Below, in pieces: positions 1,583 through 16,986 of a stretch of 64,000 nucleotides of DNA; position 1 is the first letter of the stretch, and each line of letters starts with the position of its first letter. The stretch lies in the IMG/VR virus record IMGVR_UViG_3300014613_000001, positions 1 through 64,000 of that record, one strand, 5' to 3'. Origin of the DNA: a virus. The notes under the pieces were generated by a model. That model saw only the letters and a list, made by a program, of their open reading frames with translations, was not told the DNA's origin and did not search any database. The translations under genes were made by a program, and so were the position numbers.

Positions 1583-1843
1583 ATGGAGAAGTGGTGTAAC
1601 GCGAGCCAGAGCGTCCAGCCTAACGGTGAGCTCACGCCGTTAGCTCTAGCTCTCCGGGATATCTCTTGGAACGGCTGTGAGTGTGATGAGGATCTCGATG
1701 AGGATGGTGTCTGCCTGCCGTGTCGTTGCGAGGCCGCTCTGCATGATCAATTCGACATGATCGTCCGTCGTGATGAGCGCATTGCAGAGTTGGAATCTGA
1801 GGTAGCAAAATTGCAAGACTTGGTGGATCAACATGAGGTCTGA
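1583..1843 (+). CDS. hypothetical protein (RIAELE coiled-coil type)
   Basis: AAGGAG RBS; CxC..CxxC; RIAELE motif. Confidence 0.5.
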   Translation: MEKWCNASQSVQPNGELTPLALALRDISWNGCECDEDLDEDGVCLPCRCEAALHDQFDMIVRRDERIAELESEVAKLQDLVDQHEV

Positions 1844-1868
1844 GATCGATAAGCCCCTCAGATGGCAT
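1838..1868 (-). CRISPR. solitary CRISPR-type repeat, antisense to flanking genes
   Basis: Minus strand reads ATGCCATCTGAGGGGCTTATCGATCTCAGAC, a variant of the consensus ATACCAGCTGGGAGGTTTAGTGATCCCAGAC with the stem retained. Confidence 0.75.
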
Positions 1869-1885
1869 TAGCAAATCCTGATCAG

Positions 1886-1913
1886 AGCTTACACGCGTCA
1901 GGTGCGTTGTCAA
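1886..1913 (-). promoter_or_regulatory. sigma70-type promoter pointing into the solitary repeat
   Basis: TTGACA (1913-1908), 16 nt, TAAGCT (1891-1886); same boxes and spacing at 16830-16857. Confidence 0.65.
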
Positions 1914-1932
1914 TAAAAAAGGAGGAGCAAAC

Positions 1933-2361
1933 ATGGCAAGTACCTTGAATCTGAAGACATTCGCGGCTGAGATGATGGGCCGGCAGGTCTACTACTCTCG
2001 GGTGGCCGAGCGAGTATGGAATCTGGAAAAGCGGCTAGAGGAGCACGTGTTCGTCGATCGACATCGGTACAGGACCGGCTACGGTTGGATCACTGGTGTT
2101 CGATGGTTGCGCAGCGGGTACACGGAACGAGATTCAGAGTACGGAAATACGTTCCACCCAGTCGGCTCTCCAATGATGGTCTTCCTCGTCGTCGAGCACC
2201 CAAACGGAAAACCGGTGCGGGTCGACCCAACATCGGTAGAGCTGTGCGAGTTCGATTATCGAGATCACACGATGTCAGAGAGATCTCGAAAGTGGCTGTC
2301 GGAGGACTCGAAGAACTGGCCACGCGATGAGCGTGGCCGATTCCTCAAGGAGAGCTGCTGA
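1933..2361 (+). CDS. hypothetical protein
   Basis: 142-aa ORF with strong GGAGGAG RBS. Confidence 0.6.
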   Translation: MASTLNLKTFAAEMMGRQVYYSRVAERVWNLEKRLEEHVFVDRHRYRTGYGWITGVRWLRSGYTERDSEYGNTFHPVGSPMMVFLVVEHPNGKPVRVDPTSVELCEFDYRDHTMSERSRKWLSEDSKNWPRDERGRFLKESC

Positions 2362-2368
2362 CGGTCAA

Positions 2369-2399
2369 ATACCTGCTGGGGGGTTTAGTGATCCCAGAC
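2369..2399 (+). CRISPR. solitary CRISPR-type repeat
   Basis: ATACCTGCTGGGGGGTTTAGTGATCCCAGAC, 7 nt after a stop codon and 43 nt before the next ATG. Confidence 0.85.
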
Positions 2400-2442
2400 T
2401 ACTCCTGGCTGAGCATCGTCGAGGCACTGTGAGGAGCAAAGC

Positions 2443-3153
2443 ATGAAACGCAACGAAGCGAGAACGCAGCTCTGTAAGATGGCATTCGTCGTCGGAGAGC
2501 GTATCGGTGTCGATAGTACCTGCACGTGTGAAGAAGGAGATGAAGGACTAGAGGAAGATTTCCCGGACAGGATCATCGAGGAGATGTGGAAGCACATATC
2601 ACACGATGATCGCCTGTTGGCCATCGAGGAGGCGTGGGAGCGCGAGAGCGCGTCTGCTACTGCTGTCGAGCAGCTCACAGTTCAGCTGGCTGGGTGCTCA
2701 GTTGCCGCTCTCGGTGGGACGTCTGACCCGCAGGTGGCCCGACCTGGAGATTATGGATGGAGCCCGGCCTATCAAGATGTGCTCGATCTACACCGACGCC
2801 ACTCGGATCTACGGACACACCTACTCCAGCTCATGGGTACTATCATCCACTGGATGGACGTCGGTCTCATCGACCCGGGAGCGGAACTAGGAGAATGGAC
2901 GAAAACGTCCTCACAGAAGGGAGCAGACATGGCAAGTGAATGGGACGCACCTCATTCGATGGGCGACGCGACGTGCATCAAGCTCTCGGACGGAGGCGCG
3001 GTGCTCTTTGACGTGGGGGGCGAGGAGATCTGGATACCTGGTAAGTGCATCCATCCAGATTCTGAAGTGGTCACCTCACACGATCCCGACAAGAACGTAG
3101 AGGGCGAGCTCATCGTCCGTGTCTGGTGGGCAGTCCGACACGGCTACGATTGA
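2443..3153 (+). CDS. hypothetical protein (possible internal start near 2929)
   Basis: 236-aa ORF with GAGGAG RBS; in-frame AAGGGAG-N-ATG before MASEWD suggests a separable C-terminal domain. Confidence 0.55.
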
Positions 3154-3163
3154 TCCAAGCTAC

Positions 3164-3433
3164 ATACCAGCTGGGAGGTTTAGTGATCCCAGACTCCATG
3201 AGAGCTGTGAGAGCGAGGCGCACTCAGATCCCAGACGAGAGTATCCGCATGCTCACACCTGCTGGGAGGTTTAGTGATCCCAGACGAGACGACCACGTCA
3301 CCATCACGCATACCTGCTGGGAGGTCTAGTGATCCCAGACGAAACGACCACGTCACTGTTCGCCGGGAAACTTAGTGATCCCGGACGAAACAGTCATCGT
3401 CACTGTTCGCCGGGAAACTTAGTGATCCCGGAC
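3164..3433 (+). CRISPR. degenerate mini-array upstream of cas12m-like gene (5 repeats plus 1 partial)
   Basis: Repeats at 3164-3194, 3255-3285, 3310-3340, 3356-3386, 3403-3433; partial GATCCCAGAC at 3227-3236; spacers 15-24 nt between the last four copies. Confidence 0.85.
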
Positions 3434-3457
3434 GGCAAGCGCAAAGGAGAAAAGAGA

Positions 3458-5305
3458 ATGATACTCATATATGAGTACGGAATCCCGTTTGACCCGATGG
3501 AGGGACATGACTTCGTCGAGGATCAGATCCTCATGGCCCATCGGTACTATAACAAACTGATCGAGATCGAGAGAGCGAAACGAGCTCGTATCCGGGCCAT
3601 TCAACAGGCTCATCCAATTCTCGGCCCATTGGTCACAGAATCTGACGAGACTCATGAGCTCTTCAACGACATCATCGACCGGCAGAAGAAAGCGAAGTCA
3701 AAAGACAATCGGTACCCCGAGGTCGACCCGGAAGAGTGGGAGGCCGCCAAAGAGATTTCCGCTGAGGTGCGGCTCAGACTCACGGCGGCGAAGGCGGCCG
3801 TGAAAGCGGAGCTTACGCCAGCCTATGAAGCCGCATCCCAAGAGGCGAAAGATCGGAAAAGACTGGCCCGAGCAAACTCGAAAGTGTACTGGGGCACATA
3901 CCTGATCACGGAAGCTGCAGCCGAGGCCGCGGTCAACGCCAAGCCCAAATCGAGACCGGGTAAGGTCCCGCCACCCTGGCACATGTGCCCGGCATTTCGT
4001 CGGTGGAACGGCGAGGGATCACTCGCCGTCCAGATCCAGAAGCCGAAAGCGCTGACGGAGGTGACTGTTTTCGGGCACGACAATCAGTTCAGAATCACGC
4101 CCGTTGACCCCTATGCGTGGGACAAGAGCACGCCTCGTGGCCTACGATGTCGCCTCGGCCGAACCACCTTTACGATGAGGGTAGGGATGAAGCGCGGAGA
4201 GACAGCCAGCTTCCGTATGGTCATGCACCGCCCACTTCCCCCAGGATCCAGGATCACGTGGGCAAAGATCATCCGTCGTCGAGTTGACGATCGTCTGTAC
4301 AGGTTCCGGTACTTCCTTCAGCTCACCGTTGAGACCACACTGTGCGTGCGGCACCCGGGCCTCGATAACGCAGATCCGGTCAGCATCCCGGTCGTGGCCA
4401 TCAACTGCGGTTGGAGGGCACTCGCAGATGGATCTCTTCGAGTGGCGACGTGGCTCGGCTCGGACAACCGAACGGGCACCCTCGAGCTCGGACGAGAGGA
4501 GTTTCGTGATCGGATAGAGAGAGCTGAGTCGATCAGATCACGCAGGGATATAGACCTCGACGAGCTCAAGAAGGCCATCGAGGGTTTCGGAGAGATCTTC
4601 AAGTCGATGGAGGTGGAGTGTGTCGAGAAGTGGAAGTCGTTCAGTCGGTTCCACGGGCTGTACTGCGATGTGCTGACGGAGTACGCGGAAAATCCAACAG
4701 AAGAGAAGAAGGAACTGCTCGAGCTGCTGACCTCCTGGCATCACAGGGATCGGTACCTCATGCAGTATGAGAACGGGTGCCGAGGAGGCGCACTGCGGTT
4801 CCGGCGTGAGAAGTACCGTCTGTTCGCCCTGGAGCTGGCGAAGGCCTATCCCGTGGTATGTATCGAGTCGTGGGATCTTCGACGCATTGTCGAGGATGAA
4901 CACCGACTGAAGGAGCCGTCGGCCGCTCGTGTAGAGGGAGCATCCTCTATCGCCCGGCAGATCACGCGTAACACATCGCTCAGAGAGGGCTGTGTCGTAC
5001 TGAAGCAGGGAGACAAAGAGGTCGAGCTCGCGACGCAGAGGTGCCATCTCTGTGGGTACGGTGCGAAAAAGCGTGAGCGCTGGGATGCGGCCAAGGAGCT
5101 CGTCCATGTCTGCGGCGGATGCGGCGCCGAGTGGAACCAGGACGTCAATTTCTGCGAAAACATCCTGACTACAAGCCGAGGCGACCTCGTCGGCGCACCA
5201 CAGCTGCTCGAGCCTAAGATCGTGATCCAACTCGGTCGGTTTCAGAAACGAGCTGCTGCGAAGCGCGAGCGTGAAGCAGCGCAAGCGGATGAACAAGAGG
5301 AGTAG
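3458..5305 (+). CDS. cas12m: Cas12m-like type V-M (formerly V-U1) CRISPR effector, 615 aa, non-canonical RuvC
   Basis: Start reassigned to ATG 3458 (AAGGAG RBS; the longer ORF runs through repeats). Motifs YNKLIEIER, VYWGTY, RRWNGEGSLAVQIQ, MHRPLPPGSRITWAKI, VVAINCGWR (RuvC-I), VVCIESWDL (RuvC-II), CxxC...CxxC Zn finger and NQDVNF (RuvC-III) parallel characterised Cas12m; flanked by repeats on both sides. Confidence 0.85.
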   Translation: MILIYEYGIPFDPMEGHDFVEDQILMAHRYYNKLIEIERAKRARIRAIQQAHPILGPLVTESDETHELFNDIIDRQKKAKSKDNRYPEVDPEEWEAAKEISAEVRLRLTAAKAAVKAELTPAYEAASQEAKDRKRLARANSKVYWGTYLITEAAAEAAVNAKPKSRPGKVPPPWHMCPAFRRWNGEGSLAVQIQKPKALTEVTVFGHDNQFRITPVDPYAWDKSTPRGLRCRLGRTTFTMRVGMKRGETASFRMVMHRPLPPGSRITWAKIIRRRVDDRLYRFRYFLQLTVETTLCVRHPGLDNADPVSIPVVAINCGWRALADGSLRVATWLGSDNRTGTLELGREEFRDRIERAESIRSRRDIDLDELKKAIEGFGEIFKSMEVECVEKWKSFSRFHGLYCDVLTEYAENPTEEKKELLELLTSWHHRDRYLMQYENGCRGGALRFRREKYRLFALELAKAYPVVCIESWDLRRIVEDEHRLKEPSAARVEGASSIARQITRNTSLREGCVVLKQGDKEVELATQRCHLCGYGAKKRERWDAAKELVHVCGGCGAEWNQDVNFCENILTTSRGDLVGAPQLLEPKIVIQLGRFQKRAAAKREREAAQADEQEE

Positions 5306-5313
5306 CCGTGAAA

Positions 5314-5542
5314 TAGCCAGCTGAGAGGTTTAGTGATCTCAGACGACGCGAGCATCTACCATCCGAACGCCAGCTGGGAGGCTTAGTGATCCTGGAGTGC
5401 GATCACATATAACCCGCACACCCGCTGGGAGGTTTAGTGATCCCAGACCACAGGGATACAAAATCATGTAGGATACCCGCTGGGAGGTTTAATGATCCCA
5501 GACGGACTAGAATGCCAGCTGAGAGGTTTAGTGCTCTCAGAC
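5314..5542 (+). CRISPR. mini-array downstream of cas12m-like gene (5 repeats)
   Basis: Repeats at 5314-5344, 5367-5397, 5418-5448, 5473-5503, 5512-5542; spacers 22, 20, 24 and 8 nt. Confidence 0.88.
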
Positions 5543-5571
5543 AGCAAAGAGAGGAGGGCGAGGGTACAGCG

Positions 5572-5859
5572 ATGGAAGACTACAAGGGTCCAGAGCGCAC
5601 AGTGCGCATCCCAACAACGTCGGATGATTGGCAGCTATATGATCTGCGCGGGAGCAACTTGGCTGCTGCTCGGCTGACGCGGGCGCTGAAAAAGGCCTTT
5701 ATGGCGTCGACGAGTAAGGAGTCGATCGCGATCATGTCAAAGGCACTCCGTGCAGATGTGAAGTACGGAGCGATGGATACGGAACCGCGCGCCGCGGCAG
5801 AGCGATGCCTAAACGAGGTGCTGGCGCGTGAGTTCAATTACGAAGGTACACTGGGGTGA
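5572..5859 (+). CDS. hypothetical protein lying between two repeats
   Basis: 95-aa ORF from ATG 5572 (GAGGAGG upstream); the longer ORF call runs through repeats. Confidence 0.55.
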   Translation: MEDYKGPERTVRIPTTSDDWQLYDLRGSNLAAARLTRALKKAFMASTSKESIAIMSKALRADVKYGAMDTEPRAAAERCLNEVLAREFNYEGTLG

Positions 5860-5869
5860 GTGACCCCGA

Positions 5870-5958
5870 ATGCCTGCTGGGAGTCTTAGTGATCCCAGAC
5901 AACTACGAGGGAACGCTATCATGTAGGATACCCGCTGGGAGGTTTAATGATCCCAGAC
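5870..5958 (+). CRISPR. repeat-spacer-repeat unit
   Basis: Repeats at 5870-5900 and 5928-5958, 27-nt spacer. Confidence 0.85.
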
Positions 5959-6109
5959 GCCTCGCTGCAAGAGATGTATGGAGAGTGGTGTCAAGAGAGC
6001 GAGCTCTCGAGCCGCAGGATGCCCGATTTCGAGGAGGCGATGCGGAGGGCCATGGCGCAGGGCGTAGCTCCGCTCAAGCCAGAGATCGAAATAACGGAGG
6101 AGTGATCAG

Positions 6110-6730
6110 GTGAGCTCCGAGAATATGATCATCGGGATAGATGGCTGCGGCAACGGAGCATGGTGTGGACCTCTCGTCGTTGCCGCGGTCGCTCTACCCG
6201 AAGACGCAGTGATAAAGGGGGTGCGCGACTCGAAGAAGGTGAGCGCCTACCGACGTGCCGACCTCGACCCCATCATCCGAGAGCGCGCCCTCCATTGGGT
6301 CATCGTGCAGTCCAGCGCGTCTCAGATCGACCAGTACGGCCTAGCAGCCTGTGAGAACGCTGCCATGCTGGTCTGTGCCCAGAGATGTCTCGAGCGCGCA
6401 CCGGGTGCTCAGGTCATCGTAGACGGCACCAGGCACATACGTGGACTGAAGGCAAACCAGAAGGCCATAGCCAAAGCTGATGACCTGTTCATGGCTGTCT
6501 CCGCAGCCAGTATCATCGCCAAGCTGCATCGTGATCGTTGGATGATGACGCTGGCTGCGGAGTACCCACTCTATGATCTACACTCGTGCAAGGGTTATGG
6601 CACGAAGGTGCATGGGATCTGTCTGCGCAAGCACGGGCCCTGCCCCGAGCATCGGATGTCATATGCACCGGTGGCAACGGCCGCGAAGGAGATGCACCGC
6701 CCACTCGTGGCGATCAAAGCTGGGGAGTAG
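6110..6730 (+). CDS. rnhB: ribonuclease HII (first acidic motif altered)
   Basis: GIDGCGNG..GPLVVAAV, DSKK, VIVDG, KADD...AASIIAK..RD, KGYGT..H and GPCPEHRMSY follow the RNase HII pattern. Confidence 0.85.
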   Translation: MSSENMIIGIDGCGNGAWCGPLVVAAVALPEDAVIKGVRDSKKVSAYRRADLDPIIRERALHWVIVQSSASQIDQYGLAACENAAMLVCAQRCLERAPGAQVIVDGTRHIRGLKANQKAIAKADDLFMAVSAASIIAKLHRDRWMMTLAAEYPLYDLHSCKGYGTKVHGICLRKHGPCPEHRMSYAPVATAAKEMHRPLVAIKAGE

Positions 6731-6738
6731 CGAGTAGG

Positions 6739-6769
6739 ACATCAGCTGGGAGGTTTAGTGATCCCAGAC
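6739..6769 (+). CRISPR. solitary CRISPR-type repeat
   Basis: ACATCAGCTGGGAGGTTTAGTGATCCCAGAC preceded by GTAGG; 13 nt before ATG 6783. Confidence 0.85.
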
Positions 6770-6782
6770 AGAGGGGTTTGGC

Positions 6783-7007
6783 ATGGAAGAGATCATCAGA
6801 GAGTATCAGGAGTCCGAAGGTTGGAACGATCGTGTGATCATTATGATTCTGTCCGACTTCGTGGAGATGAAAGTCTGGGAGCATGAGTTCGAAGAGTACA
6901 TCGAGCGTCGTGCAGAGGCTGATCGCCATGAGGAGACGCTGATCGCTGCGTTCGCCGAGGAAGAGGATAGCCCAGACTGTGATGGCTGGGACTGGGAGAC
7001 CGACTGA
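6783..7007 (+). CDS. small acidic hypothetical protein
   Basis: 74-aa ORF, GAGGGG RBS. Confidence 0.5.
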   Translation: MEEIIREYQESEGWNDRVIIMILSDFVEMKVWEHEFEEYIERRAEADRHEETLIAAFAEEEDSPDCDGWDWETD

Positions 7008-7679
7008 GTGGCGATCATAACCACACGAGGGCGGATCTTCAATGGGAGGCGCTTTGCACTGAAGGTCCGAGTAAACAGAGATGGTTTGTTTCGTATAGCG
7101 TGGCCCCACGAAATCGTTGACCTTTTCGGGCCTCCTGTCGAGGCGATTGCAACAACACAGGATGAAGCACTTGTGCTGTGGGAGAATCGAGTACGTGAAT
7201 TCACCGAAGCGCGTACTACAAAACGAAAAGTGATCCGATACAGGGTGAAGATTCAAGGTAAGTTTTGGGTCGAAGAAGGCGGCCACTGGTTTGTGCGGAG
7301 TGATGTTCCTTTTGGTTGTGGACTAGGGCTTCTCATCTGGGCTGGTGTATATGAAGAAACTTGTGTTACTCGGGATAACGCCGAAGACGTGTACAGCTAT
7401 GACGCAATCCCTAATGATCTTCCGCTAAGCATTCGTAATCCCGGGAATTTTGGAATTGATAGACACGGGCAAAGGCGTGATACTCACTCCATTCCATGGT
7501 CCGAAAAGGGTGAAGCGTTTTTCAGTCGGGCAGCGTCTTTGCTGGAAAAGCTGTCGGTTTCATTGGCGGATATGACCTCGAATTCAAAAGAATTTGCGGA
7601 GCTGGTAGAGACAGCCGGCCCAATGTTGCTTTCACCAGCGAGCGGAGATGCTCGAGCAGATGATGAGCCTATCAAATGA
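7008..7679 (+). CDS. hypothetical protein
   Basis: 223-aa ORF abutting the upstream stop. Confidence 0.55.
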   Translation: MAIITTRGRIFNGRRFALKVRVNRDGLFRIAWPHEIVDLFGPPVEAIATTQDEALVLWENRVREFTEARTTKRKVIRYRVKIQGKFWVEEGGHWFVRSDVPFGCGLGLLIWAGVYEETCVTRDNAEDVYSYDAIPNDLPLSIRNPGNFGIDRHGQRRDTHSIPWSEKGEAFFSRAASLLEKLSVSLADMTSNSKEFAELVETAGPMLLSPASGDARADDEPIK

Positions 7680-7949
7680 AACGTACTTGGCTGCACAAAA
7701 GTGATTTAGTAAAGGGGGGATTTGAGCTCTGGGATGTCCCCCAGCGCGCATACGTGTAAGGATGAGAGGTAGATATGCTTAAATTTCACCGTAAGGAACA
7801 ATGGGACCTCGAATGCTGGCCGTGGCTCGTCATCGCGTGGACGACGCCCGACAGGTACCGGCGCATCGCCTGCCTCTGGAGAGGGGGTGTGGAGCTCGGC
7901 AGCCTGCTCGTGACCTGGGAGCGACGGAAGCTGACGGCGGTGTGGTGAG

Positions 7950-8342
7950 ATGCTGAAACAACACCAACAACGAAACGACGACTGTGTCCGGGCGTGTGTT
8001 GCGACCATCCTTGAGCTGCCGATCGAATCCGTTCCGAATTTCGTAGCCGAACGGGGATGTGTATGGCTCGACAGGCTCAGGGAGTGGCTCCTGCCTCGTG
8101 GTTTAACGGCCATCAATGTCTCCTTCTCTGACAGTGACGAACCTGGGCTCGGAATCCTCTGCGGCGCGGGCGGAGCTGGTCCGAGGGGATGTGACCACGA
8201 GGTGGTGTGGCGCGATGGAGAGGTGGTGTGGGACCCGTATCCTGGCGGAGGCGGACTCGTCGGGAAGCCAAAAGATTTTCTGATCTTTATCCCACTCGAC
8301 CCGGCCCATGTCCAGCTCGGTTTTCTGGGATGCGATGAATAA
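7950..8342 (+). CDS. papain/C39-like fold hypothetical protein
   Basis: Q..DDCVRACVATIL N-terminus and H-x-V-V...WDP C-terminal motif. Confidence 0.45.
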   Translation: MLKQHQQRNDDCVRACVATILELPIESVPNFVAERGCVWLDRLREWLLPRGLTAINVSFSDSDEPGLGILCGAGGAGPRGCDHEVVWRDGEVVWDPYPGGGGLVGKPKDFLIFIPLDPAHVQLGFLGCDE

Positions 8343-8351
8343 GGAGTCCAA

Positions 8352-8576
8352 ATGGCAAAATTGTTTTACAAGATATATTGGGATATGGCGCTTGGAGTAG
8401 GACGAAACAAGTTTCGCCATGGATTCACAGTTGTAGACATAAACGGGGAAAAGGTGTCACACTGTTTGAACTACCTATGTCTGCAACCTACTCCTTTTAG
8501 GAAAGCCAACAACCTACAGAATAAGCATATTAGGATGGCTAAGAAAGCAGGAATAGAAAGATTTGAATGGGTTTAG
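8352..8576 (+). CDS. hypothetical protein
   Basis: AAGGAG RBS, AT-rich 74-aa ORF. Confidence 0.45.
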   Translation: MAKLFYKIYWDMALGVGRNKFRHGFTVVDINGEKVSHCLNYLCLQPTPFRKANNLQNKHIRMAKKAGIERFEWV

Positions 8577-8681
8577 ACTATGAAGATAAATGTAGACATT
8601 GACATCGCCAGGAACCCTGACCCCATCCGACGTCGAGGGCTCGGCAGCCCCGGTGCAGTTCGGTCTGCTGGGAGATGAGGG

Positions 8682-8888: not shown

Positions 8889-9012
8889 CCGGTCACCGAG
8901 GACGAGGAGGAGGAGGAGGAGGAGGACGAGGGCTGAGATGGCCGACGAGTGGCGATCGTGCTGACCCCCAGGACGGAAGAAGAGGAGGCCCCCAGCGGGC
9001 CGAGGAGCCATT

Positions 9013-9412: not shown

Positions 9413-10048
9413 ATGACCCGAGAAATAAACCAGGATGGCTCGCTCGCAAAGAATGATGTAGTGTCATACCCAAAAAAGTGCTTTGGGTGCGGGTCCGCAA
9501 TATATGGTTTAGATACACCGTTCGGAGGGAGCTCTGCTCTAGACATAGAAGTGACCCGTTTTGGTCATATTACGGTGTGCCACACTAAGACAAGAGGAGG
9601 CGGATTATGGGCCTATCACCCAAAGAAATCATGCCTTTCTAGCGCCCTTCAGCATTTACACGAGCTCCGCTTGTGCGTGGGGTGCGGTAAAGTCGCAAAG
9701 GGTCCCATATGCCCATGCTGCTCTAGGGTGCTGGAGAACTCTGAATCGGTCGCTAGAAAACTCGACGAATTACGGCGAAATCAGCGTGCTTTAGAGGAGG
9801 AACGCGAACTCAAGGCAGCATGCCTTATAGCCGATCGTATCATCGGCAAATACTGGGTATCGGAGCACCGTGACGCCACCAGTGCTCATGAGCTTGCGCG
9901 GCGAGCTCGTGATTACGTCGTCCAAAAGATTGAAGCCGCTCGGGAAGATGGGTTCAGGCAGGGGAGAAGTCTGCTCCTGGGCATCCGGGACGGAACGCTT
10001 AAATTGTATGACACGTTTGATCTCGGTCCACAACGTGGGGGCGAGTGA
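9413..10048 (+). CDS. hypothetical Cys-rich protein
   Basis: 211-aa ORF with CxxC pairs. Confidence 0.5.
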   Translation: MTREINQDGSLAKNDVVSYPKKCFGCGSAIYGLDTPFGGSSALDIEVTRFGHITVCHTKTRGGGLWAYHPKKSCLSSALQHLHELRLCVGCGKVAKGPICPCCSRVLENSESVARKLDELRRNQRALEEERELKAACLIADRIIGKYWVSEHRDATSAHELARRARDYVVQKIEAAREDGFRQGRSLLLGIRDGTLKLYDTFDLGPQRGGE

Positions 10049-10104
10049 GATGACAACCGATATGTACGACCTGTTTGGATTGGGCTCCGATAAGGAGAAG
10101 TACA

Positions 10105-10305
10105 ATGTCTGACGTGAAAACTGATCTTGAAAACATCGAGGATGTCAAGGATCGACGTCTCGATGAGAAGCTACAAATCACACCGGTCACGCCGGCTGAG
10201 TACGGCGTCAATGAGGAGATCGTTGAGGCGCTGAAAGCTACGCACAGGCAAGCACTCTTGGAGGCATCGTGGCGTGCAGCATTCCCACTTCTACCGTGGG
10301 ATTAG
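10105..10305 (+). CDS. small hypothetical protein
   Basis: TAAGGAG RBS before ATG 10105. Confidence 0.45.
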   Translation: MSDVKTDLENIEDVKDRRLDEKLQITPVTPAEYGVNEEIVEALKATHRQALLEASWRAAFPLLPWD

Positions 10306-10357
10306 GGTCAGTCTACGGCCCACTCGTGGCGATCAAAGCCAGGGAGTAGCGAGTAGG

Positions 10358-10388
10358 ATACCAGTTGGAAGGTTTAGTGACCCCAGAA
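10358..10388 (+). CRISPR. solitary degenerate repeat
   Basis: ATACCAGTTGGAAGGTTTAGTGACCCCAGAA preceded by GTAGG; 17 nt before ATG 10406. Confidence 0.75.
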
Positions 10389-10405
10389 GTATGAGGAGAG
10401 TTGAC

Positions 10406-10696
10406 ATGGATTTTGAAAAGAAGCACCGGGAGAAGTGTTATGCCTACGATTGGAGCGGAGCGTGTGCTCCACTTTCGGCGAAGTTGTACAACAGCCAAGA
10501 GACATTCTCGGTTGGCATCTTCCAGTGGGTGAAGACGAGTCGGGGTAATCACCTCAAGAAGACGCCAATCATCTACCGGATCAGGGGCAGCGTACAGCAC
10601 CCCGAGAAGGTCTATGCTCGAGCTGAAGAGCTGTGCGATCTGCTGGACTCGGGGATCGAGTGGAAGATGAAGGGGAAGTCGGAGACTGTGAGATGA
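10406..10696 (+). CDS. hypothetical protein
   Basis: 96-aa ORF from ATG 10406 with GAGGAG RBS. Confidence 0.55.
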   Translation: MDFEKKHREKCYAYDWSGACAPLSAKLYNSQETFSVGIFQWVKTSRGNHLKKTPIIYRIRGSVQHPEKVYARAEELCDLLDSGIEWKMKGKSETVR

Positions 10697-10998
10697 GTTT
10701 AGTGCTACACGGGCTCAAAGGCAACGCATGGTCTGATGAGGCCGAAGAGCTGCTCAGCGGGTTAGAATATGAATTCCGGCGGATACCACCCGATGTGCAC
10801 CCCAAGACCAATCCCAGGGTGCCTTACATCCCCACACTCAGCCGTGAGTACACGGTCGACGGGGATCATAGCTGGCAGCGGCTCGCGGCTGGGCTCGACG
10901 AGATACGGGAGTGGGTTGACCAGCGACGTAGGCTGGAGATCCTCATCAACAACATAGAGGAAGAGCAACAACGTACAGGAGGAGTAGGAGATGAGTAG
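10693..10998 (+). CDS. hypothetical protein
   Basis: ATGA overlap with upstream gene. Confidence 0.45.
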   Translation: MSLVLHGLKGNAWSDEAEELLSGLEYEFRRIPPDVHPKTNPRVPYIPTLSREYTVDGDHSWQRLAAGLDEIREWVDQRRRLEILINNIEEEQQRTGGVGDE

Positions 10999-11323
10999 AG
11001 GGACGCCGACTGTCATCCAGCTTGAGCTGGAAAAAGATCTGATACAGCGCCAAGAGAAGAGGCAGACTGCTAACCGTATCAAAGAATTGGAGGATCTGGC
11101 CGAGAAAGAGAACGAAGAGCTCCAATTGCTTCGAGCCCGGGTTGCCGAGCTAGAAGACGAGGTGAAGCACGCTGCCGAAATTTGCGAGCAGTGGGCACGG
11201 CAGGTCGAGCTGCCGGACTGCGACCTCGAGTCAGTAGCTTCGGTGCTGCGCTGCTTGGTTCAGCAACTGAGGTCCCTGTCTATCGCCGAAGAGCTGCTCA
11301 TCCTAGAGGCCTCGAACGCGTAA
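10991..11323 (+). CDS. coiled-coil hypothetical protein
   Basis: GGAG RBS; RVAELE motif. Confidence 0.5.
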   Translation: MSRGTPTVIQLELEKDLIQRQEKRQTANRIKELEDLAEKENEELQLLRARVAELEDEVKHAAEICEQWARQVELPDCDLESVASVLRCLVQQLRSLSIAEELLILEASNA

Positions 11324-11357
11324 GATGGGCATAAAATACTGATGGTAGGAGCAGGGG

Positions 11358-11906
11358 ATGACGACTGACGATCCCTACAACACAACGTTTGTGCCCGTCC
11401 CGCTGAAGGAACTCGAGCGGCTGAAAAGTGACTCGCACGACCTCGACTTGATTATGGGCCGTCTTGCTGAGGTCGTCCTGAAGAATGAAAAGCTCAAGGA
11501 CGAGCTCGTTGATTTCGCCAACATACTGGAGTGGGTCGGGGGGAGTGGTGATGAGTGTCACGAGTGCTGTGGGTCGGGCCTGGGTTGTGAACTGTGCAGG
11601 GCGTGGAACCGAGAAGAAGAATACTGCAAGCTCCAGGCGCTACCTGGTAAAGATGGTTGCCAAGGAGACGCCCTAGATGCGGGTCCCTGCCCTCGATGCT
11701 CCGTCCCTGCCTATGTCCCTGCCGGCGAGTGGGTGGAGTGTGAGGAGTGCCGAGGATCTGGCTGGGTACCATGCCCGGATGGCATCGACTGGGCGTCCGG
11801 TGAGCAGACGGTCGGTGACAGGGAATGGTGCCCTGGATGCCGAGGCCGGGGCGAGGCTCGTGCCCCGGTTGCACTCGGAGTGGTCTACGACGATTGGGAG
11901 AAATGA
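11358..11906 (+). CDS. protein with DnaJ-type CxxCxGxG zinc-finger repeats
   Basis: CHECCGSG, CEECRGSG, CPGCRGRG. Confidence 0.55.
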   Translation: MTTDDPYNTTFVPVPLKELERLKSDSHDLDLIMGRLAEVVLKNEKLKDELVDFANILEWVGGSGDECHECCGSGLGCELCRAWNREEEYCKLQALPGKDGCQGDALDAGPCPRCSVPAYVPAGEWVECEECRGSGWVPCPDGIDWASGEQTVGDREWCPGCRGRGEARAPVALGVVYDDWEK

Positions 11907-12183
11907 ATGCTGGATTGAACGTATGCTCCAACTATACTGTTCCTGTTGGCGGCCGTCCTTGTTTTTGTGTTTGGGATGTGCGAATCCGCAGAGCGCGAAC
12001 CAGAAGAGTGCGACTGCGATCATGAGGAGCCGAGCTGCAGAGTCGCGGACACCTGGTACACCTGTTGCCTCAACGCAAGCAACGATCTTGATCTCTGCCA
12101 AGAGGAGCTCGAGCACGCAGAGAACATGAACAACTACTACTGGAGCTGTTGTCTCGGGGCGACGCGTACACCCTACGACGACG

Positions 12184-12654
12184 ATGATGAGGAGTGAGAT
12201 GGATCAGGAGAACAATGTGCATGGTTCGCTCGATAAGAGTGGGGTGGACATCGTTGAACGGGCGAGGGAGGTCGCGGCCACTCCTCACCCTGCACCGCTT
12301 GAGGCTCGGCAGTTTGCGGCGGAAGTGGTAGAGGGGATTGTCCGGCTCCGGGCTCGCGTTGCCCGACTAGAGGCCACGGTCTCGGACCGGGAGGATGAGA
12401 TCGGCCTGCAGGCGATCGTGATTTGCGGACTCAGAGATCGCGTTGCCGAGCTGGAGGGGGCCGACGAGTGGGTGGAGTGTGATGGGTGCGAGGGAAGCGG
12501 AAGAACCCTGCGAAACGAATACATCGGATTCCAGGAAGACATCCCCTGCCCCGAATGCCAGGGCCGGGGTAGGGTTCGCGCTATGGTCGCTGAATCGGAG
12601 GTCGAGCCCTCGGCGTCGCGGATGCTGCACGGCCTGCTGGGAGGTGAGGAGTGA
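12184..12654 (+). CDS. coiled-coil protein with DnaJ-type zinc finger
   Basis: RVAELE; CDGCEGSG...CPECQGRG. Confidence 0.5.
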   Translation: MMRSEMDQENNVHGSLDKSGVDIVERAREVAATPHPAPLEARQFAAEVVEGIVRLRARVARLEATVSDREDEIGLQAIVICGLRDRVAELEGADEWVECDGCEGSGRTLRNEYIGFQEDIPCPECQGRGRVRAMVAESEVEPSASRMLHGLLGGEE

Positions 12655-13016
12655 CCGAGATAGTGAAACCGACAAGGGAGATGACGATCCGGGAGCTGGC
12701 CGCGGCGTTGAATGCCAACGGGCGGCGAATCCGAAACAACGCCGAGTTCATCTTGGAACTCGCCGAGGAACTGATGAGGCGGGGTTCACTGGAGTACACA
12801 TCGGAGGTTGAGCGAGAGCGTGATGAGATGGTCGCCGCGCTCGAGGCAGCGTGGCAGCGCGAGGTGTCGAGTTCCGGCTCGATCGCGGTGATGCGGCGAG
12901 TCCACCAGCGACGGACTGCTGAGTTGGAGGCAGAGCGCGACCAGTGGCGAGCGAAGGCCGAGGAGGCGAGGACTGCCTTCGACGAGAAGTCAGAGAGGTC
13001 AGAGGAGCCGTGTTGA
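12651..13016 (+). CDS. coiled-coil hypothetical protein
   Basis: GTGA-coupled, GAGGAG RBS. Confidence 0.5.
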   Translation: MTEIVKPTREMTIRELAAALNANGRRIRNNAEFILELAEELMRRGSLEYTSEVERERDEMVAALEAAWQREVSSSGSIAVMRRVHQRRTAELEAERDQWRAKAEEARTAFDEKSERSEEPC

Positions 13017-13043
13017 CCGAGAAAGCTGATTAGGAGGAGTGAG

Positions 13044-13622
13044 ATGGGAACAAGAGGAGCGATAATCTTCACGATCGACGGTCATAGTGTCATCCAGTAC
13101 AACCACTATGACAGCTATCCGACGGGCCTGGGTAAGAGCATCTCGAAGGAGTGGCCGGTGCTGTTGAAGCGCTGGCCGATGGATGTGCTGAGGGAGCGGG
13201 TGCGCGAGCTCAGACAGGTATCCGAGGATGGTGATCCGCCGTCCGAAGAGGCGAAGCACTTCCTGGAGAAGTATAGCAACCTCGGAGTGTCTGAGAAGTC
13301 GCTGGATGATTGGTACTGTTTGCTCCATCGGTGCCAGGGCAAGTTGATCCGGACCCTCGAGTCCGGGCATATCATGGGTGACATGGACTCCATGGTGAAC
13401 GACGGAACGGCGTTCTCATTCATTTATGTCCTGGACTTCGACGCCGAGTGTCTCGAGGTCTACGAGGGGTTCCAGAGGAGAGAGCACGTTCTTGGATGGC
13501 GTGGGGCCGCTATGCCTGACGCAAGAGGGTTCTGGCCGCCGGCTCTGATCAGCTCAACCCCGTTCGGCAGCATCGAGTCTATCGACTGGGAGGCGATGGA
13601 AGAGCTCACCCGAGAGGACTGA
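13044..13622 (+). CDS. conserved phage hypothetical protein
   Basis: AGGAGG RBS; MGTRG...YNHYDSYPTGLG N-terminus typical of a widespread phage family. Confidence 0.65.
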   Translation: MGTRGAIIFTIDGHSVIQYNHYDSYPTGLGKSISKEWPVLLKRWPMDVLRERVRELRQVSEDGDPPSEEAKHFLEKYSNLGVSEKSLDDWYCLLHRCQGKLIRTLESGHIMGDMDSMVNDGTAFSFIYVLDFDAECLEVYEGFQRREHVLGWRGAAMPDARGFWPPALISSTPFGSIESIDWEAMEELTRED

Positions 13623-13639
13623 GGAGCATCGCTGATTGA

Positions 13640-13777
13640 AGACCTGCTGGGAGGTTTAGCGATCCCAGACTTGACGTCTGACGGTTGACATCTGATCGTA
13701 TACCAGCTGGGATGTTTAGTGATCTCAGATAGCCAGCCGGGGTCACATATTAGCTGGGATATTTAGTGATCTCAGAC
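13640..13777 (+). CRISPR. mini-array (3 repeats)
   Basis: Repeats at 13640-13670, 13700-13730, 13747-13777; spacers 29 and 16 nt. Confidence 0.82.
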
Positions 13778-13806
13778 GTGAACAAACGGATTACGATGCA
13801 GAGGCC

Positions 13807-14004
13807 ATCGGAAAGTGTAATAGAACGTTACGCATTTAGCTAAGTGGGTAATGTTCTATTACACTTTCCGATTCAATGTGTAGGGGGCGCACCACCCCAT
13901 ATCGTGCGGTAAATGTAGTCTGGAGCGAGGATACGGCTGGTATCGTAAAGTGTAATAGAACATTACGCATTTAGCTAAGTGGGTAATGTTCTATTACACT
14001 TTCG
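13807..14004. repeat. two copies of a ~60-66 bp near-perfect palindrome
   Basis: 13807-13872 and 13942-14004 share AAAGTGTAATAGAAC(G/A)TTACGCATTTAGCTAAGTGGGTAATGTTCTATTACACTTT, centred on TTAG|CTAA. Confidence 0.9.
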
Positions 14005-14021
14005 CTGGGAGCTTGATCGGT

Positions 14022-14246
14022 ATGACGACACGTATTCCGACATCAATGCTGGTAGAGTACCTTCTCCGTTGCACAAAATGTGGGAAGGATCACAAGGCTA
14101 CCATGGTCGCGAACTTGAACCTGGGTGACGTTATCGTCCCGCCTACGACGGGATCGAAATACGGGCGGTGTGTGCTCTGTCACAACCCCGGGCTCCGGGT
14201 CATGCGAAGATCTGACGACGGCTCGGGTGTTGATTACAACGCCTGA
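14022..14246 (+). CDS. small zinc-ribbon protein
   Basis: CTKC...CVLC; ATG 14022. Confidence 0.45.
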   Translation: MTTRIPTSMLVEYLLRCTKCGKDHKATMVANLNLGDVIVPPTTGSKYGRCVLCHNPGLRVMRRSDDGSGVDYNA

Positions 14247-14406
14247 ATTCGCTGGTCCAACCCAAGTGTGTGCTGCCTGCACCGGATTTTTCTTAGCTGG
14301 TCACGGTACCAGTCCGACCTCCGTGCTGTGAGACCGCATCCCTCTCTCTGAGTAGGGCATCCGCTACTGGTCCTGCCCGAGTATCGGATGCCTGAGTCTG
14401 GTTTTT

Positions 14407-14680
14407 CTTAGTTGATCATGTTAGTGATCTGATCCGTGTACTGCAAGATCAGAGCTCTCTTCGGGCGCGCTCTGCATCACTCATCGGAAAGCGGTATAGT
14501 ACATTACGCATTTATACATAATATATTATAATACATAGTATATAGAATTAGTTATATATATAAGTGCGTAATGTACTATACTGCCTTTCGACGGGTAATG
14601 TCACACGCACAACCAGAGAGCCCTGATCTTCGTGCATATGAGCAAGATCACTAACATGATCACTAACATGATTAGCTAAG
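14407..14680. repeat. nested inverted repeats around an AT-rich core (candidate origin or terminus)
   Basis: Three concentric inverted-repeat pairs share an axis near 14537; core 14511-14563 has 5 G/C in 53 nt. Confidence 0.8.
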
Positions 14681-14700
14681 AGGATGTACACCCAGTAGTG

Positions 14701-14732
14701 TCCCGACACCGGCCTCTCGGCCGGCATCGGGA
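14701..14732 (-). terminator. GC-rich hairpin at the end of the minus-strand block
   Basis: 14-nt arms with a GAGA tetraloop on the minus strand, about 20 nt past stop 14753; no clear U-tract. Confidence 0.35.
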
Positions 14733-14752
14733 TCAGGGCGGGCTCTATCTAT

Positions 14753-15334
14753 CTATCGGCGGGGGTCGTCGTCAGGGTCGGGCTCGGTCCCCCTGCAGGC
14801 CGACTTCGTGAGCAGCTCCAGAAGCTCTTCAATCCTCATCCCCGAAGCGGGCGCTGTCTTAGCCTTGAGCGCCGAGAGGCGCTCTCGGATCTCGACCCTG
14901 GCGATCGAGTTGGCCGTTTCTGCCTCGATCCGCTTCGTCTCCGCCCGGTACTGTTCTGTCGCCCGGGTGGAGATGACTGCAGGGACAAAGCTGGTGGCGA
15001 GTGCCACCAACTGGTCCAGCATGCCCTGGGCTGATTCCAGGGCGTTGGTTTGCAGAGCTACCTGGCCCTCCAGGTAGCTCTGCACGTTCGCCTCGTGCGC
15101 CATGTGGCACACGCGACATCGCACGACGCCGGCCCGGCACTCCAAGCACTCGACGCCTTCGTCGGCGCCGAGAGTCTGTCCGCACTCATCACAACGGTTT
15201 TTGCCCGCTGCGGTTTTTTCTCCGCGACATTGGTCGCAGAGCGTTCCGTCGAGCATGAGCTCGACGCAGTGACCCTCGAGATCTTCGATCTCGAGTTCGC
15301 GTCCACACTCTTCACAGCGACAGCGGGTCTTCAT
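14753..15334 (-). CDS. multi-CxxC zinc-finger protein with coiled coil
   Basis: GGAGG RBS; at least five CxxC pairs. Confidence 0.6.
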   Translation of the reverse strand: MKTRCRCEECGRELEIEDLEGHCVELMLDGTLCDQCRGEKTAAGKNRCDECGQTLGADEGVECLECRAGVVRCRVCHMAHEANVQSYLEGQVALQTNALESAQGMLDQLVALATSFVPAVISTRATEQYRAETKRIEAETANSIARVEIRERLSALKAKTAPASGMRIEELLELLTKSACRGTEPDPDDDPRR

Positions 15335-15608
15335 TTTGTCCTCCAGCTGCGAAAAAGATTGCGCGCCGCACCCACCCTACATGCACGGCGCGCGGTCCTT
15401 ACTTTTGCTTACTCGGTTGATCAGCCGAGCAAGGTGTTTCAGGCCCTCCGAGGGTAGATGGAGTCTCACCATCTACCTACTCCCCGAGGAGTCGCGGTCT
15501 ACTCGGCGTCCGCTGGATAGTCAGGTGCCAACGTCTGGAGCTGTCTCTCCCGTGATCACGGGCCTAGCTCCGCCCCGAGGTATCCATACCCTCGGGAATC
15601 TCCCTGAC

Positions 15609-15639
15609 TTCTGGGATTACTGAGCCTCCCAGCCGGCTT
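15609..15639 (-). CRISPR. solitary repeat
   Basis: Minus strand AAGCCGGCTGGGAGGCTCAGTAATCCCAGAA, 4 nt after the lipoprotein stop. Confidence 0.7.
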
Positions 15640-15643
15640 CGCC

Positions 15644-16108
15644 TTATTGCGCCGCTTGTTCGACCTGGACGGACCAGGTCCGGCCGGGGTCGGCATTCAC
15701 ATTGATCACAAATGTCCCTCCGGTCCTCAGCGTTATTGATCGGTGCACGTCCACCGGTGTCGTCCTGGGCGCGCTGTGCAGACTCACTTCGTTGACCAGC
15801 GCCCCGTTGTAGAATGGTTGTTCATCCGCAGAGCTGAGCTCTGCGGAAAAGAACTCAGACGCTCCAGGCGTCCAGTTGTGCTGCACCGACACCGTGACCG
15901 TGCCGGGATACAGCGCGAAGGTAGTTGTTCTGTGCAGCCCGGACCCGACGAACTCCCTGCTTACAGCAGGGTGGCTCGCTGGAGCTGGACTGACCGCAAT
16001 GATCGCTGCGGGCACTACCCGCTCCGTTTGCGCTACTTCTGTTCCTTCGATTTCGTCATAACAGCCAGACATCAGTACAGCTGCCAGAAACATGGTCATG
16101 CGTCCCAT
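15644..16108 (-). CDS. predicted lipoprotein
   Basis: Hydrophobic signal with lipobox LMSG-C; AAGGAG RBS. Confidence 0.65.
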   Translation of the reverse strand: MGRMTMFLAAVLMSGCYDEIEGTEVAQTERVVPAAIIAVSPAPASHPAVSREFVGSGLHRTTTFALYPGTVTVSVQHNWTPGASEFFSAELSSADEQPFYNGALVNEVSLHSAPRTTPVDVHRSITLRTGGTFVINVNADPGRTWSVQVEQAAQ

Positions 16109-16130
16109 CTTATCTCCTTCTTCCTTACCT

Positions 16131-16161
16131 ATCTGGGATCAATAAGCCTCCCAGCCGGCCG
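16131..16161 (-). CRISPR. solitary repeat
   Basis: Minus strand CGGCCGGCTGGGAGGCTTATTGATCCCAGAT, 22 nt before lipoprotein ATG. Confidence 0.75.
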
Positions 16162-16320
16162 AGCGAAAGATCATGTGCTGTACCCGCTCCCGGAAGGAGC
16201 GTCCTCCGTCTCGCAGCACGTCGACCACTGCCCGTGGTAGACATGCCTGTACTCGATATGGCAGCTCGTCGAGGCGGGGCACGCCAGGACATGCTTGTTT
16301 GCCACGAGATCTCACACCAC

Positions 16321-16351
16321 CTATGAGATCACTAAACTTCTCAGCTAGTAT
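16321..16351 (-). CRISPR. solitary repeat
   Basis: Minus strand ATACTAGCTGAGAAGTTTAGTGATCTCATAG. Confidence 0.75.
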
Positions 16352-16523
16352 CTGGCGGTAGAGACGAGTCCGAGAGCGGGTACAGCACATGATCTTGAGA
16401 GTTAGCACTCCCAATTCACTAATACTCTTATGTCTGTTTTTATTGGTTTTTGCCGATGATCAGCTAAGAAGAGAGCCCAAGGAGCCTGACGAATGTCAGC
16501 GCTTGATCCTCGGACTATCAGGT

Positions 16524-16811
16524 TTACACGGTGGGGGAGATGGCGTGGAGTACTCTGAGGAGTATTGTCACGTCATCGTCGTCAGCCCGTCCTTCTGCCA
16601 TATCTATGGCGGTTTGTTCGAGCTGGCTAATGCAGTTCGCACTTTCGTAGCCGAACACAATGTGCCCGATCAAGCTGTTGATCAGGAGCTGAATCTCGTA
16701 GGTCCCCAACGTGGGGGTTAGGGTACCCCCACCTGGTCCGAATTGTGCGACGTTGAAAACGACGTCGCCGTTCTCGTCTGGTGCTTCGCGCACCAGAATC
16801 ACATCCTTCAT
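16524..16811 (-). CDS. hypothetical protein
   Basis: AAGGAG RBS, 95 aa. Confidence 0.55.
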   Translation of the reverse strand: MKDVILVREAPDENGDVVFNVAQFGPGGGTLTPTLGTYEIQLLINSLIGHIVFGYESANCISQLEQTAIDMAEGRADDDDVTILLRVLHAISPTV

Positions 16812-16829
16812 TCACCTATCTCCTTTTTA

Positions 16830-16857
16830 TTGACAATGCACCTGACGAGCATAAGCT
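16830..16857 (+). promoter_or_regulatory. sigma70-type promoter pointing into the solitary repeat
   Basis: TTGACA (16830-16835), 16 nt, TAAGCT (16852-16857). Confidence 0.65.
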
Positions 16858-16874
16858 CTGATCAGGATTTGCTA

Positions 16875-16905
16875 ATGCCAGCTGAGAGGCTTATTGATCT
16901 CAGAC
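16875..16905 (+). CRISPR. solitary repeat, antisense to flanking genes
   Basis: ATGCCAGCTGAGAGGCTTATTGATCTCAGAC. Confidence 0.8.
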
Positions 16906-16986
16906 CTCATAGTGCCAGTCCAGCCCAAGTCCTGTGCTTCGGATCGGGATGCAGCTCCTCGGGGAACTGCTCTCCACCTATACGGA

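Follow-up and report, generated by a model that had tools for sequence, protein, structure and literature searches.

We consider here a stretch of 64,000 nucleotides of DNA (referred to below as the window), which forms the first 64 kb of a 177,773-bp groundwater phage contig (IMG/VR record IMGVR_UViG_3300014613_000001), and in it a family of short cassettes that place a solitary clustered regularly interspaced short palindromic repeat (CRISPR) unit behind a pair of promoter-like boxes. The ends of the contig overlap by 123 bp, and the phage genome is therefore complete and circularly assembled. The window holds two of the cassettes (A and B), the gene for a type V-M effector, cas12m, and many further copies of the same repeat, which we call handles (Table 1). 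Over the whole genome, the repeat family amounts to ~38 copies, spread over ~52 kb of early genes; 23 handle copies fall within 1838-16905 of the window, and none between 17 and 64 kb. As we argue below, the five full cassettes of this genome would represent a recently spread family of self-promoted solitary repeat units belonging to the phage's own Cas12m.

Table 1. Cassettes, handles and adjoining genes (window coordinates, except where a genome position in kb is given).
Feature	Position	Strand	Remarks
Gene upstream of cassette A	1583-1843	+	TGA stop lies inside the end of the handle
Cassette A	1.9 kb	-	full copy, subtype A/E
Cassette A, 20-nt guide	1818-1837	-	runs antisense over the final codons and stop codon of gene 1583-1843
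Cassette A, full-length type V-M repeat (handle), subtype A/E	1838-1874	-	both helices intact; G·U at columns 19/30 fits only this strand
Cassette A, leader CTGATCAGGAT	1875-1885	-	contains the palindrome CTGATCAG
Cassette A, promoter-like boxes	1886-1913	-	-35 TTGACA 1908-1913, 16-nt spacer, -10 TAAGCT 1886-1891
Cassette A, T-tract	1914-1920	-	complement runs on into the GGAGGAG ribosome-binding site of gene 1933-2361
Gene with ribosome-binding site abutting the T-tract of cassette A	1933-2361	+	
Six sense handles upstream of cas12m	3158-3433	+	the last ends 24 nt before the cas12m start codon
cas12m	3458-5305	+	615 amino acids; only copy in the genome
Five sense handles downstream of cas12m	5308-5542	+	short period, 39-55 nt
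Gene with ribosome-binding site abutting the T-tract of cassette B	16524-16811	-	
Cassette B	16.9 kb	+	full copy, subtype B/C/D
Cassette B, T-tract and promoter-like boxes	16824-16857	+	T-tract 16824-16829, TTGACA 16830-16835, 16-nt spacer, TAAGCT 16852-16857
Cassette B, leader	16858-16868	+	
Cassette B, full-length type V-M repeat (handle), subtype B/C/D	16869-16905	+	
Cassette B, guide	16906-16925	+	non-coding; first 12 nt the same as in guide C (genome 142.15 kb)
Real gene upstream of cassette B	16987-17364	-	
Cassette C	142.2 kb	-	full copy, subtype B/C/D
Cassette D	156.35 kb	-	full copy, subtype B/C/D
Cassette E	157.8 kb	-	full copy, subtype A/E
Cassette F	160.86-160.90 kb	-	decayed; 33 nt gone (-10 box, leader, start of the repeat)

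The initial annotation, made from the sequence of the window, had described a twin pair of near-identical cassettes at 1831-1925 (minus strand) and 16820-16912 (plus strand), each with TTGACA-N16-TAAGCT, a leader, one repeat and CTCAT. Both are present with this anatomy, and they form an inverted repeat (1833-1919 against 16824-16910; 92% identity over 87 nt), but they are not a pair: a whole-genome search for the 95-bp family returned five full copies and one decayed copy. The order of units is the same in every full cassette: the T-tract comes first, then TTGACA-N16-TAAGCT and a leader of 11 nt, and last the repeat, which is 37 nt long with GAC at its end. A leader thus does exist, although the stretch first given that name includes the 5' third of the repeat, to judge from the 36-nt repeat of a 55%-identical Cas12m locus (L005). 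Two subtypes can be distinguished, A/E and B/C/D, and copies of one subtype differ at only 1-2 positions; identity between cassettes is 90-100%, with the promoter spacer included within each subtype, and the near-identical copies are spaced 14-40 kb apart. Homology between copies begins at the T-tract and stops exactly at the last base of the repeat, so that a different "guide" follows in each copy; beyond that border, five further bases (CTCAT) are common to A, B and C, and 12 are common to B and C. The cassettes are always placed between a stop codon and the next ribosome-binding site, and in both A and B the T-tract beside the -35 box continues directly into sequence complementary to the divergent gene's GGAG ribosome-binding site, in agreement with the earlier description of boxes adjoining that site. 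Searches with the leader gave 0 matches in viral_contigs, and searches with leader plus repeat gave 0 matches in metagenome_contigs.

By its sequence, the cassette repeat constitutes a Cas12m handle that is intact on the very strand the promoter-like boxes would read, because its helices match the layout known from Cas12m2 and the pattern of G·U pairs favors that strand. The scaffold of the Cas12m2 CRISPR RNA (crRNA) comprises a G:A pair, a 6-bp helix reaching to position -3, a C at -1 and a second, coaxial helix (PMC10442227). We tested the corresponding structure (a 6-bp helix ending at -3, plus a second helix of 3 bp joining the 5' part to the loop) on 36 aligned handles. Pairing is found in 98.0% of the cells of this alignment, as against 91.6±0.7% in shuffles, and the covariation score of 0.353 (0.216 in shuffles) was reached by 0/500 shuffles; controls in which the structure was slid along the alignment paired in only 4-53% of cells. 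In the second helix, all three pairs have changed on both sides among the 36 handles. G·U pairs outnumber A·C combinations by 14 to 2, and cassettes A and E each include a G·U that would not pair if the opposite strand were read. In all five full cassettes, both V-M helices, the G:A pair and the terminal GAC are kept (compared with PMC10442227), and the changes that separate the two subtypes preserve both helices, occurring only by way of G·U pairs or in the loop. A comparison of the handle with Rfam yielded no family, and only spurious miRNA matches on long palindromes.

The effector itself is clearly recognizable: the product of cas12m matches Cas12m structures (PDB 23vw, E=6e-40; Cas12m2 8hhl, E=1.5e-14). 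Like its closest relatives, it has asparagine in place of the RuvC-I aspartate, so that the site is not that of a canonical nuclease, and a His-Arg-Pro (HRP) motif is invariant in the Cas12m alignment. In Cas12m2, the His and Arg of this motif read the 3' end of the repeat (PMC10442227), and Cas12m effectors silence through DNA binding (PMC11013384). A protein search of viral_contigs with the phage Cas12m returned no locus. The RuvC-I asparagine (alignment A3, window ~4390) also occurs in a clade of proteins (P0003-P0007, P0009, P0011) that includes a Mu-like phage locus with a normal array and 36-nt spacers. In the window (3409-3457), and likewise in at least two unrelated metagenomic V-M loci (L164:695-730 and L183:273-312), a solitary handle lies so close to cas12m that only 10-24 nt separate its end from the start codon; since the handle ends just before the start, its guide covers the ribosome-binding site of cas12m itself, and this may be a conserved autoregulatory layout. 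Also within the handle-rich block near cas12m is an RNase HII gene (6110-6730; Pfam E=8e-29), a notable neighbor for an effector that forms R-loops, as RNase HII removes RNA from RNA-DNA hybrids.

The presence of this effector bears on one explanation directly. The initial annotation had offered, as an alternative to loading of the phage Cas12m, that the cassettes act as decoys of a host effector, in the manner of RNA anti-CRISPRs (Racrs) titrating a host type V-M enzyme. A solitary repeat driven by a promoter in a phage is indeed the defining layout of a Racr (PMC10651486). Here, in contrast, the phage encodes both the cognate effector and arrays of the same repeat family, and a search covering 185,579 species by one genome each (genome_contigs) gave no match to the repeat pattern. 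With an effector and arrays of its own in the phage and the repeat unmatched in those species, the decoy reading lacks support; units of the Racr type, moreover, typically occur without associated cas genes (PMC10651486), and we consider this explanation highly improbable.

The combination of TTGACA-N16-TAAGCT with an upstream T-tract occurs in the five cassettes and nowhere else in the 178 kb, and a looser pattern (TTGAC[AGT]-N15-18-TAnnnT) has just four other matches in the genome. Both hexamers are invariant in 5/5 full copies, while five of the 16 spacer positions differ between subtypes; a start ~7 nt after TAAGCT would fall ~6 nt ahead of the repeat. Two other promoter candidates were discarded: a sense-strand promoter in the cassette, which reads TTAGCA-N16-TATGCT in B/C/D but has TACACG in A/E and is thus not conserved, and a phage-polymerase-type motif (GCTAGAT-N18-CTTATACC) that lies near no cassette.

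The most informative property of the boxes is where they occur relative to transcription. Purine skew outlines a rightward unit running from ~131 kb through the genome end to ~14 kb, together with a short leftward unit from 17.5 to 14 kb. Handles that bear a promoter are antisense to the local genes in 5/5 cases, whereas handles without one are sense in 32/34 (Fisher p=3.6e-5); the two promoterless antisense matches are the decayed cassette F and a doubtful match with 8 mismatches. This orientation rule is most simply read as meaning that a handle needs transcription on its own strand, and has its own promoter where read-through cannot serve. It also provides the strongest case at hand for regarding the boxes as a genuine promoter, given a -10 box that is weak relative to the E. 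coli consensus. The same rule bears on the possibility that the cassettes are functionless recent duplicates of a promoter-repeat fragment, which is what the near-identity of the copies (within a subtype, down to the promoter spacer) and the visible decay of F might lead one to expect. Inert copies would not be expected to lie antisense in 5/5 full copies and in F as well, nor to occupy, without exception, the gap from a stop codon to the following ribosome-binding site, nor to differ between subtypes only by changes that keep both helices, and we give this explanation very little credence.

What the cassettes might be aimed at is less readily apparent. Guides A, D and E overlap the last codons or the stop of the upstream phage gene, and guides B and C are non-coding. 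The annotated claim that the sequence past the repeat is antisense to the 3' end of the upstream gene therefore holds for A (gene 1583-1843) and fails for B: the ORF (open reading frame) at 16907-17095, low in complexity and rich in Arg and Gly, is probably no real gene, and as the real gene upstream of B ends at 16987, guide B lies in non-coding DNA. Pfam and PHROGs searches with the flanking and inserted genes returned nothing informative. Against the phage's own genome, the cassette guides gave only chance-level matches (18 nt at <=3 mismatches), and their seeds of 11-13 nt were no commoner there than random k-mers; a 13-nt match of guide A at 139.3 kb and a 12-nt match of guide E at 152.1 kb were set aside as within the control rate. 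In IMG/VR, no match was found for guide B (20 nt), guide D (20 nt) or guide A (18 nt); guide C matched one 18-nt family in AT-rich huge phages with the flank AAA, which is the number that chance predicts.

The situation is different for a three-repeat array at 67 kb, whose first handle is identical to the core of cassette C and which ends in a hairpin and T-run terminator. The last guide of this array (genome 66994-67013, minus strand; L003:995-1014) matches 20/20 at eight loci: six IMG/VR proviruses (46-58 kb), Sphingobium scionense DSM 19371 and a Rhizobiaceae metagenome-assembled genome. The match runs from +1 to +20 after the handle, and in 7/8 loci the flank on the side of the protospacer-adjacent motif (PAM) is CATC, a candidate PAM. 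The gene concerned is small and Cys-rich and neighbors a cI-like repressor; the protospacer is antisense to its 5' untranslated region and ribosome-binding site. These targets suggest that the hosts are to be sought among alphaproteobacteria and that the phage is in conflict with prophages resident there, and the matches show that the phage Cas12m system carries at least one real spacer and is in use for that guide.

This array naturally raises the prospect that the cassettes, too, are classical trans-acting units with a single spacer each, directing Cas12m to silence by binding either a gene of the host or a rival mobile element, the target being one missing from the searched collections. The same phage has one proven 20-nt trans spacer with a defined flank, Cas12m effectors are known to silence by DNA binding (PMC11013384), and guides B and C are non-coding and share their first 12 nt, which is the seed end for Cas12. 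Set against these points are the absence of IMG/VR matches for A, B and D, the chance number of the guide C family, and the result for four whole target proviruses, in which no cassette guide matched above the control rate (~1 match per 17-mer) and the array guide alone matched. The ~20 nt after each repeat, which had been proposed for such a search, thus have no target above chance in the phage, IMG/VR or the four proviruses. At home, the cassette guides are flanked by the repeat end GAC, not by CATC; three of them (A, D and E) double as the last codons of phage genes, and no terminator defines the RNA. We therefore regard the trans-acting explanation as distinctly unlikely. Of the suggestion that these are dedicated single-guide expression units, the intact V-M repeat, the promoter-like boxes and the differing guides stand, and the lack of a target, the three guides in coding sequence and the lack of a terminator leave a single-guide unit in the classical spacer sense no more than conjectural.

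One pair of cassettes can be placed relative to an insertion. A gene for a 669-amino-acid protein (ending at 156,323) is followed in this phage by one for a 130-amino-acid protein (starting at 157,861), neither with a Pfam family, and the second follows the first in 76/80 related phage loci. The gap between them is within 41 nt in 39/76 of those loci and 944 nt at most, as compared with 1,538 nt here (L002:315-4254, genome 154314-158253). The 1.5-kb insert contains three orphan ORFs (0 homologues in related loci) and two sense handles; no handles were found near the gene pair in 36 related loci. Cassette D bounds the insert on the left, where its handle supplies the G of the upstream stop codon, and cassette E bounds it on the right, where its T-tract abuts the downstream ribosome-binding site; D lies at the outer edge with its handle outward, and the handle of E faces into the insert. 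The D handle and the next sense handle are inverted repeats with the promoter between them and TA at either outer end (genome 156323-156441, L002:2324-2442); these TA flanks are absent from the other cassettes. At the borders of A, B and C the available relatives are too distant for synteny, so that the evidence for insertion borders comes from the D/E site; five large related phages, themselves without Cas12m, contain no homologue of a 251-amino-acid protein from the flanks of A and B.

Border positions of this kind would be expected if the cassettes were mainly mobile regulatory elements or antisense promoters resembling PeSLs or lambda OOP, in which a strong early promoter, directed against read-through out of the upstream gene, would provide cis-antisense RNA and insulate the next gene block, the repeated units would be recombination sites at which gene modules are shuffled, and the handle would be a mere stem-loop. 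The succession of stop codon, stem-loop, sigma-70-like promoter with AT-rich upstream tract, Shine-Dalgarno sequence (SD) and start is that of PeSLs (PMC2839356); near-identical copies recur 14-40 kb apart, D and E flank an insert of orphan ORFs, and 6/6 copies are antisense. In addition, a fold-back chimeric contig from a groundwater metatranscriptome (window 16614-16858) has its junction at 16858, the base after TAAGCT, which is consistent with a sense RNA having its 5' end at this expected duplex edge, a weak hint given by a single contig of depth 4.4 whose strand is indeterminable. On the other hand, PeSL promoters are sense and drive the next ORF, which cassette promoters never do; the pseudoknot-type second helix, the G and the terminal AC are all kept, and would be needless for a terminator or recombination site; and the border evidence comes from one site only. 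We consider this explanation unlikely, albeit one to be taken seriously.

The D/E site also invites a reading akin to the guides of TnpB, but without cutting: each handle would lie at the edge of an inserted block and read out into the flank, and Cas12m would be aimed at the uninterrupted junctions of co-infecting relatives that lack the cassette. Guide D matches the empty junction of one relative (L054) with 2 mismatches in 20, next to a flank (TCCT) that is the complement of a ribosome-binding site. Were this so, the protospacer would have beside it the pyrimidine-rich complement of the next gene's ribosome-binding site, and not the repeat end with its protective role; Cas12m bound there would silence the rival genome or stall it, and stalled replication could favor the allele that bears the cassette. 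We hold this to be very unlikely.

The reading that we favor, with a probability of roughly 55%, is that the cassettes would be transcribed early by the host polymerase into handle-plus-flank RNAs that are bound by the phage's nuclease-inactive Cas12m. Under this proposal, host sigma-70 RNA polymerase would start ~6 nt before the V-M repeat and read outward against the phage operons, and the product, a handle with flanking sequence, would be bound and trimmed by the single Cas12m of the phage. Handles along the flow of transcription would need no promoter and handles against it would carry one; only five handles would have a promoter because only these lie against the flow. The guides would simply be neighboring DNA, and, given the lack of a distant guide target and the GAC flank at home, the effect of the cassettes is probably local or dosage-based rather than that of a classical spacer. 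As to what that effect might be (we infer transcription, Cas12m loading and some regulatory consequence), one option is a cis-antisense, handle-tagged RNA directed against the upstream gene and against read-through into the next gene or block. Another is an early pool of handles, driven by the host polymerase, that would load or buffer Cas12m while the ~30 sense handles just upstream of ribosome-binding sites (that of cas12m included) are being transcribed. The cassettes would, in addition, mark the borders of inserted gene blocks, in the manner of the mobile promoter/stem-loop cassettes of T4-type phages.

Several observations weigh against this proposal. At the promoter, the -10 box TAAGCT agrees with the E. 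coli consensus at 3/6 positions and stands behind a 16-nt spacer (a consensus that the host may not share), and the cassette sites are absent from the list produced by a generic sigma-70 scan. The conservation of the hexamers is not significant taken alone, as only ~10 substitutions separate the subtypes, and the near-identity of the copies, promoter spacer included, fits recent duplication as well as it fits selection. At the level of RNA, the metatranscriptome X4 (5% of words; thin, and consisting of contigs only) contains three contigs on 20 kb, with no cassette transcript among them, a result too slight to count for or against transcription; the folding energy of cassette RNA on either strand is no better than that of shuffles (z 0.2-0.9); and no terminator was found within ~500 nt downstream of the cassettes, the nearest terminator-like sites on the cassette strands being ~550-600 nt off and at chance frequency. 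Column 26 of the loop is T or C in cassette-type handles and G in most sense handles; in Cas12m2 a loop guanine contacts the protein, and Cas12m may therefore bind the cassette-type handle differently. Finally, the overlap of guides A, D and E with coding sequence is odd for evolvable spacers.

Elsewhere in the window, two copies of a 62-nt near-perfect hairpin and an inverted repeat with 108-nt arms (13807-14003 and 14413-14662) sit exactly where the rightward and leftward transcription units converge; Rfam returned only spurious miRNA matches for them. Where the leftward unit and the rightward genes diverge, four overlapping copies of a palindromic 21-mer (TGTGTGCACAACGTGTGTACA) at 17459-17522 are operator-like in appearance, with a T-run behind them. 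At 21993-22118, a stretch of 63 bp is duplicated perfectly in tandem.

Among known systems, the closest is type V-M CRISPR-Cas12m itself, with MmCas12m2, GoCas12m and MsCas12m as examples (PMC10442227, PMC11013384), and phage-borne Cas12m is on record from Virus Rctr197k (GenBank KX853510, with annotated arrays) and myxophage MV-1 (bioRxiv 10.64898/2026.09.14.751636). The effector family is the same, as are the 36-37-nt repeat with its two helices, G:A pair and terminal GAC, and the single guide of ~17-20 nt without trans-activating crRNA (tracrRNA); in both, the non-canonical RuvC site implies binding rather than cutting. Unlike the repeats of a regular V-M array, the cassette repeat is solitary, self-promoted and antisense to its neighbors, and where V-M has one array, this genome has ~38 scattered copies, with adjacent phage sequence as the cassette guide. 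A spacer matching foreign DNA beside a PAM, as in type V-M, was found here for the last guide of the 67-kb array, and for none of the cassette guides. In a survey of 80 metagenomic Cas12m loci, 44 have handle-like repeats, mostly in arrays just downstream of cas12m on the same strand, and a few have solitary handles just upstream of it; no antisense promoter cassette was recognized in these loci, which are mostly short contigs. A metagenomic Cas12m locus (L150) has two identical solitary handles in inverted orientation, 4.4 kb apart and just upstream of cas12m (5117-5140, minus strand, and 9551-9574, plus strand), a geometry that resembles that of A and B, with no obvious promoter.

Racrs resemble the cassettes in being solitary repeats with an upstream promoter in a viral genome, the cassette promoter being known by sequence only; they differ in that Racrs mimic host repeats and poison host complexes, usually without linked cas genes, whereas this phage owns the matching effector (PMC10651486). 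The crRNA-like regulatory RNAs, comprising crlRNA, CreA/CreR and the viral Cracr (bioRxiv 10.1101/2023.03.03.530964, 10.1101/2024.10.29.618823), similarly consist of a stand-alone repeat and a short guide that serve regulation rather than immunity; their guides, however, part-pair with a cas or toxin promoter, whereas the seed matches of the cassettes (11-13 nt) do not exceed those of random k-mers. PeSL units flank orphan genes and drive modular shuffling in T4-type phages (PMC2839356). They share with the cassettes a length of ~70-100 bp, an AT-rich tract, a sigma-70-like early promoter and a stem-loop, a position between stop and SD, and the occurrence of many near-identical copies in plastic regions, flanking orphan genes or indels as the D/E pair does here (PMC2839356, PMC4122927). 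The PeSL promoter, in contrast, follows the direction of the genes and its stem-loop is a terminator, while the cassette promoter opposes the genes and its stem-loop is a CRISPR handle lying past the start.

Two further comparisons concern the direction in which the cassettes read. In lambda OOP, a promoter just past a gene fires back into the 3' end of that gene, as the cassette promoter would; OOP has its own terminator and no protein handle, whereas the cassettes have no terminator of their own and do carry a handle. For TnpB, Meers et al. (2023) reportedly found that the guide of the omega-RNA is the DNA flanking the end of the element. The cassettes would likewise combine a scaffold of the TnpB/Cas12 lineage at an insert border with outward reading and a guide that is the flank; they differ in lacking a transposase and a nuclease-competent RuvC (Asn instead), and only D is clearly at the outer edge of an insert and facing out.

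Promoter-driven solitary repeats (Racrs, viral crRNA-like RNAs) and phage Cas12m with arrays are thus already known. A self-promoted family of handles for a phage's own effector, a uniform antisense orientation and a position at module borders were found in none of the sources compared. Promoter-driven solitary CRISPR repeats in phages have so far been known as weapons against host CRISPR systems, and here the phage owns the effector; the rule linking promoter and orientation provides an argument, drawn from sequence alone, that the cassette RNAs are used. Taken together, our findings suggest that this phage has turned a CRISPR effector into machinery for the control of its own genes or the organization of its genome, and the link to insert borders offers a testable bridge from the handles of CRISPR systems to the guide RNAs of transposons and to the mobile promoter cassettes by which phage genes are shuffled.

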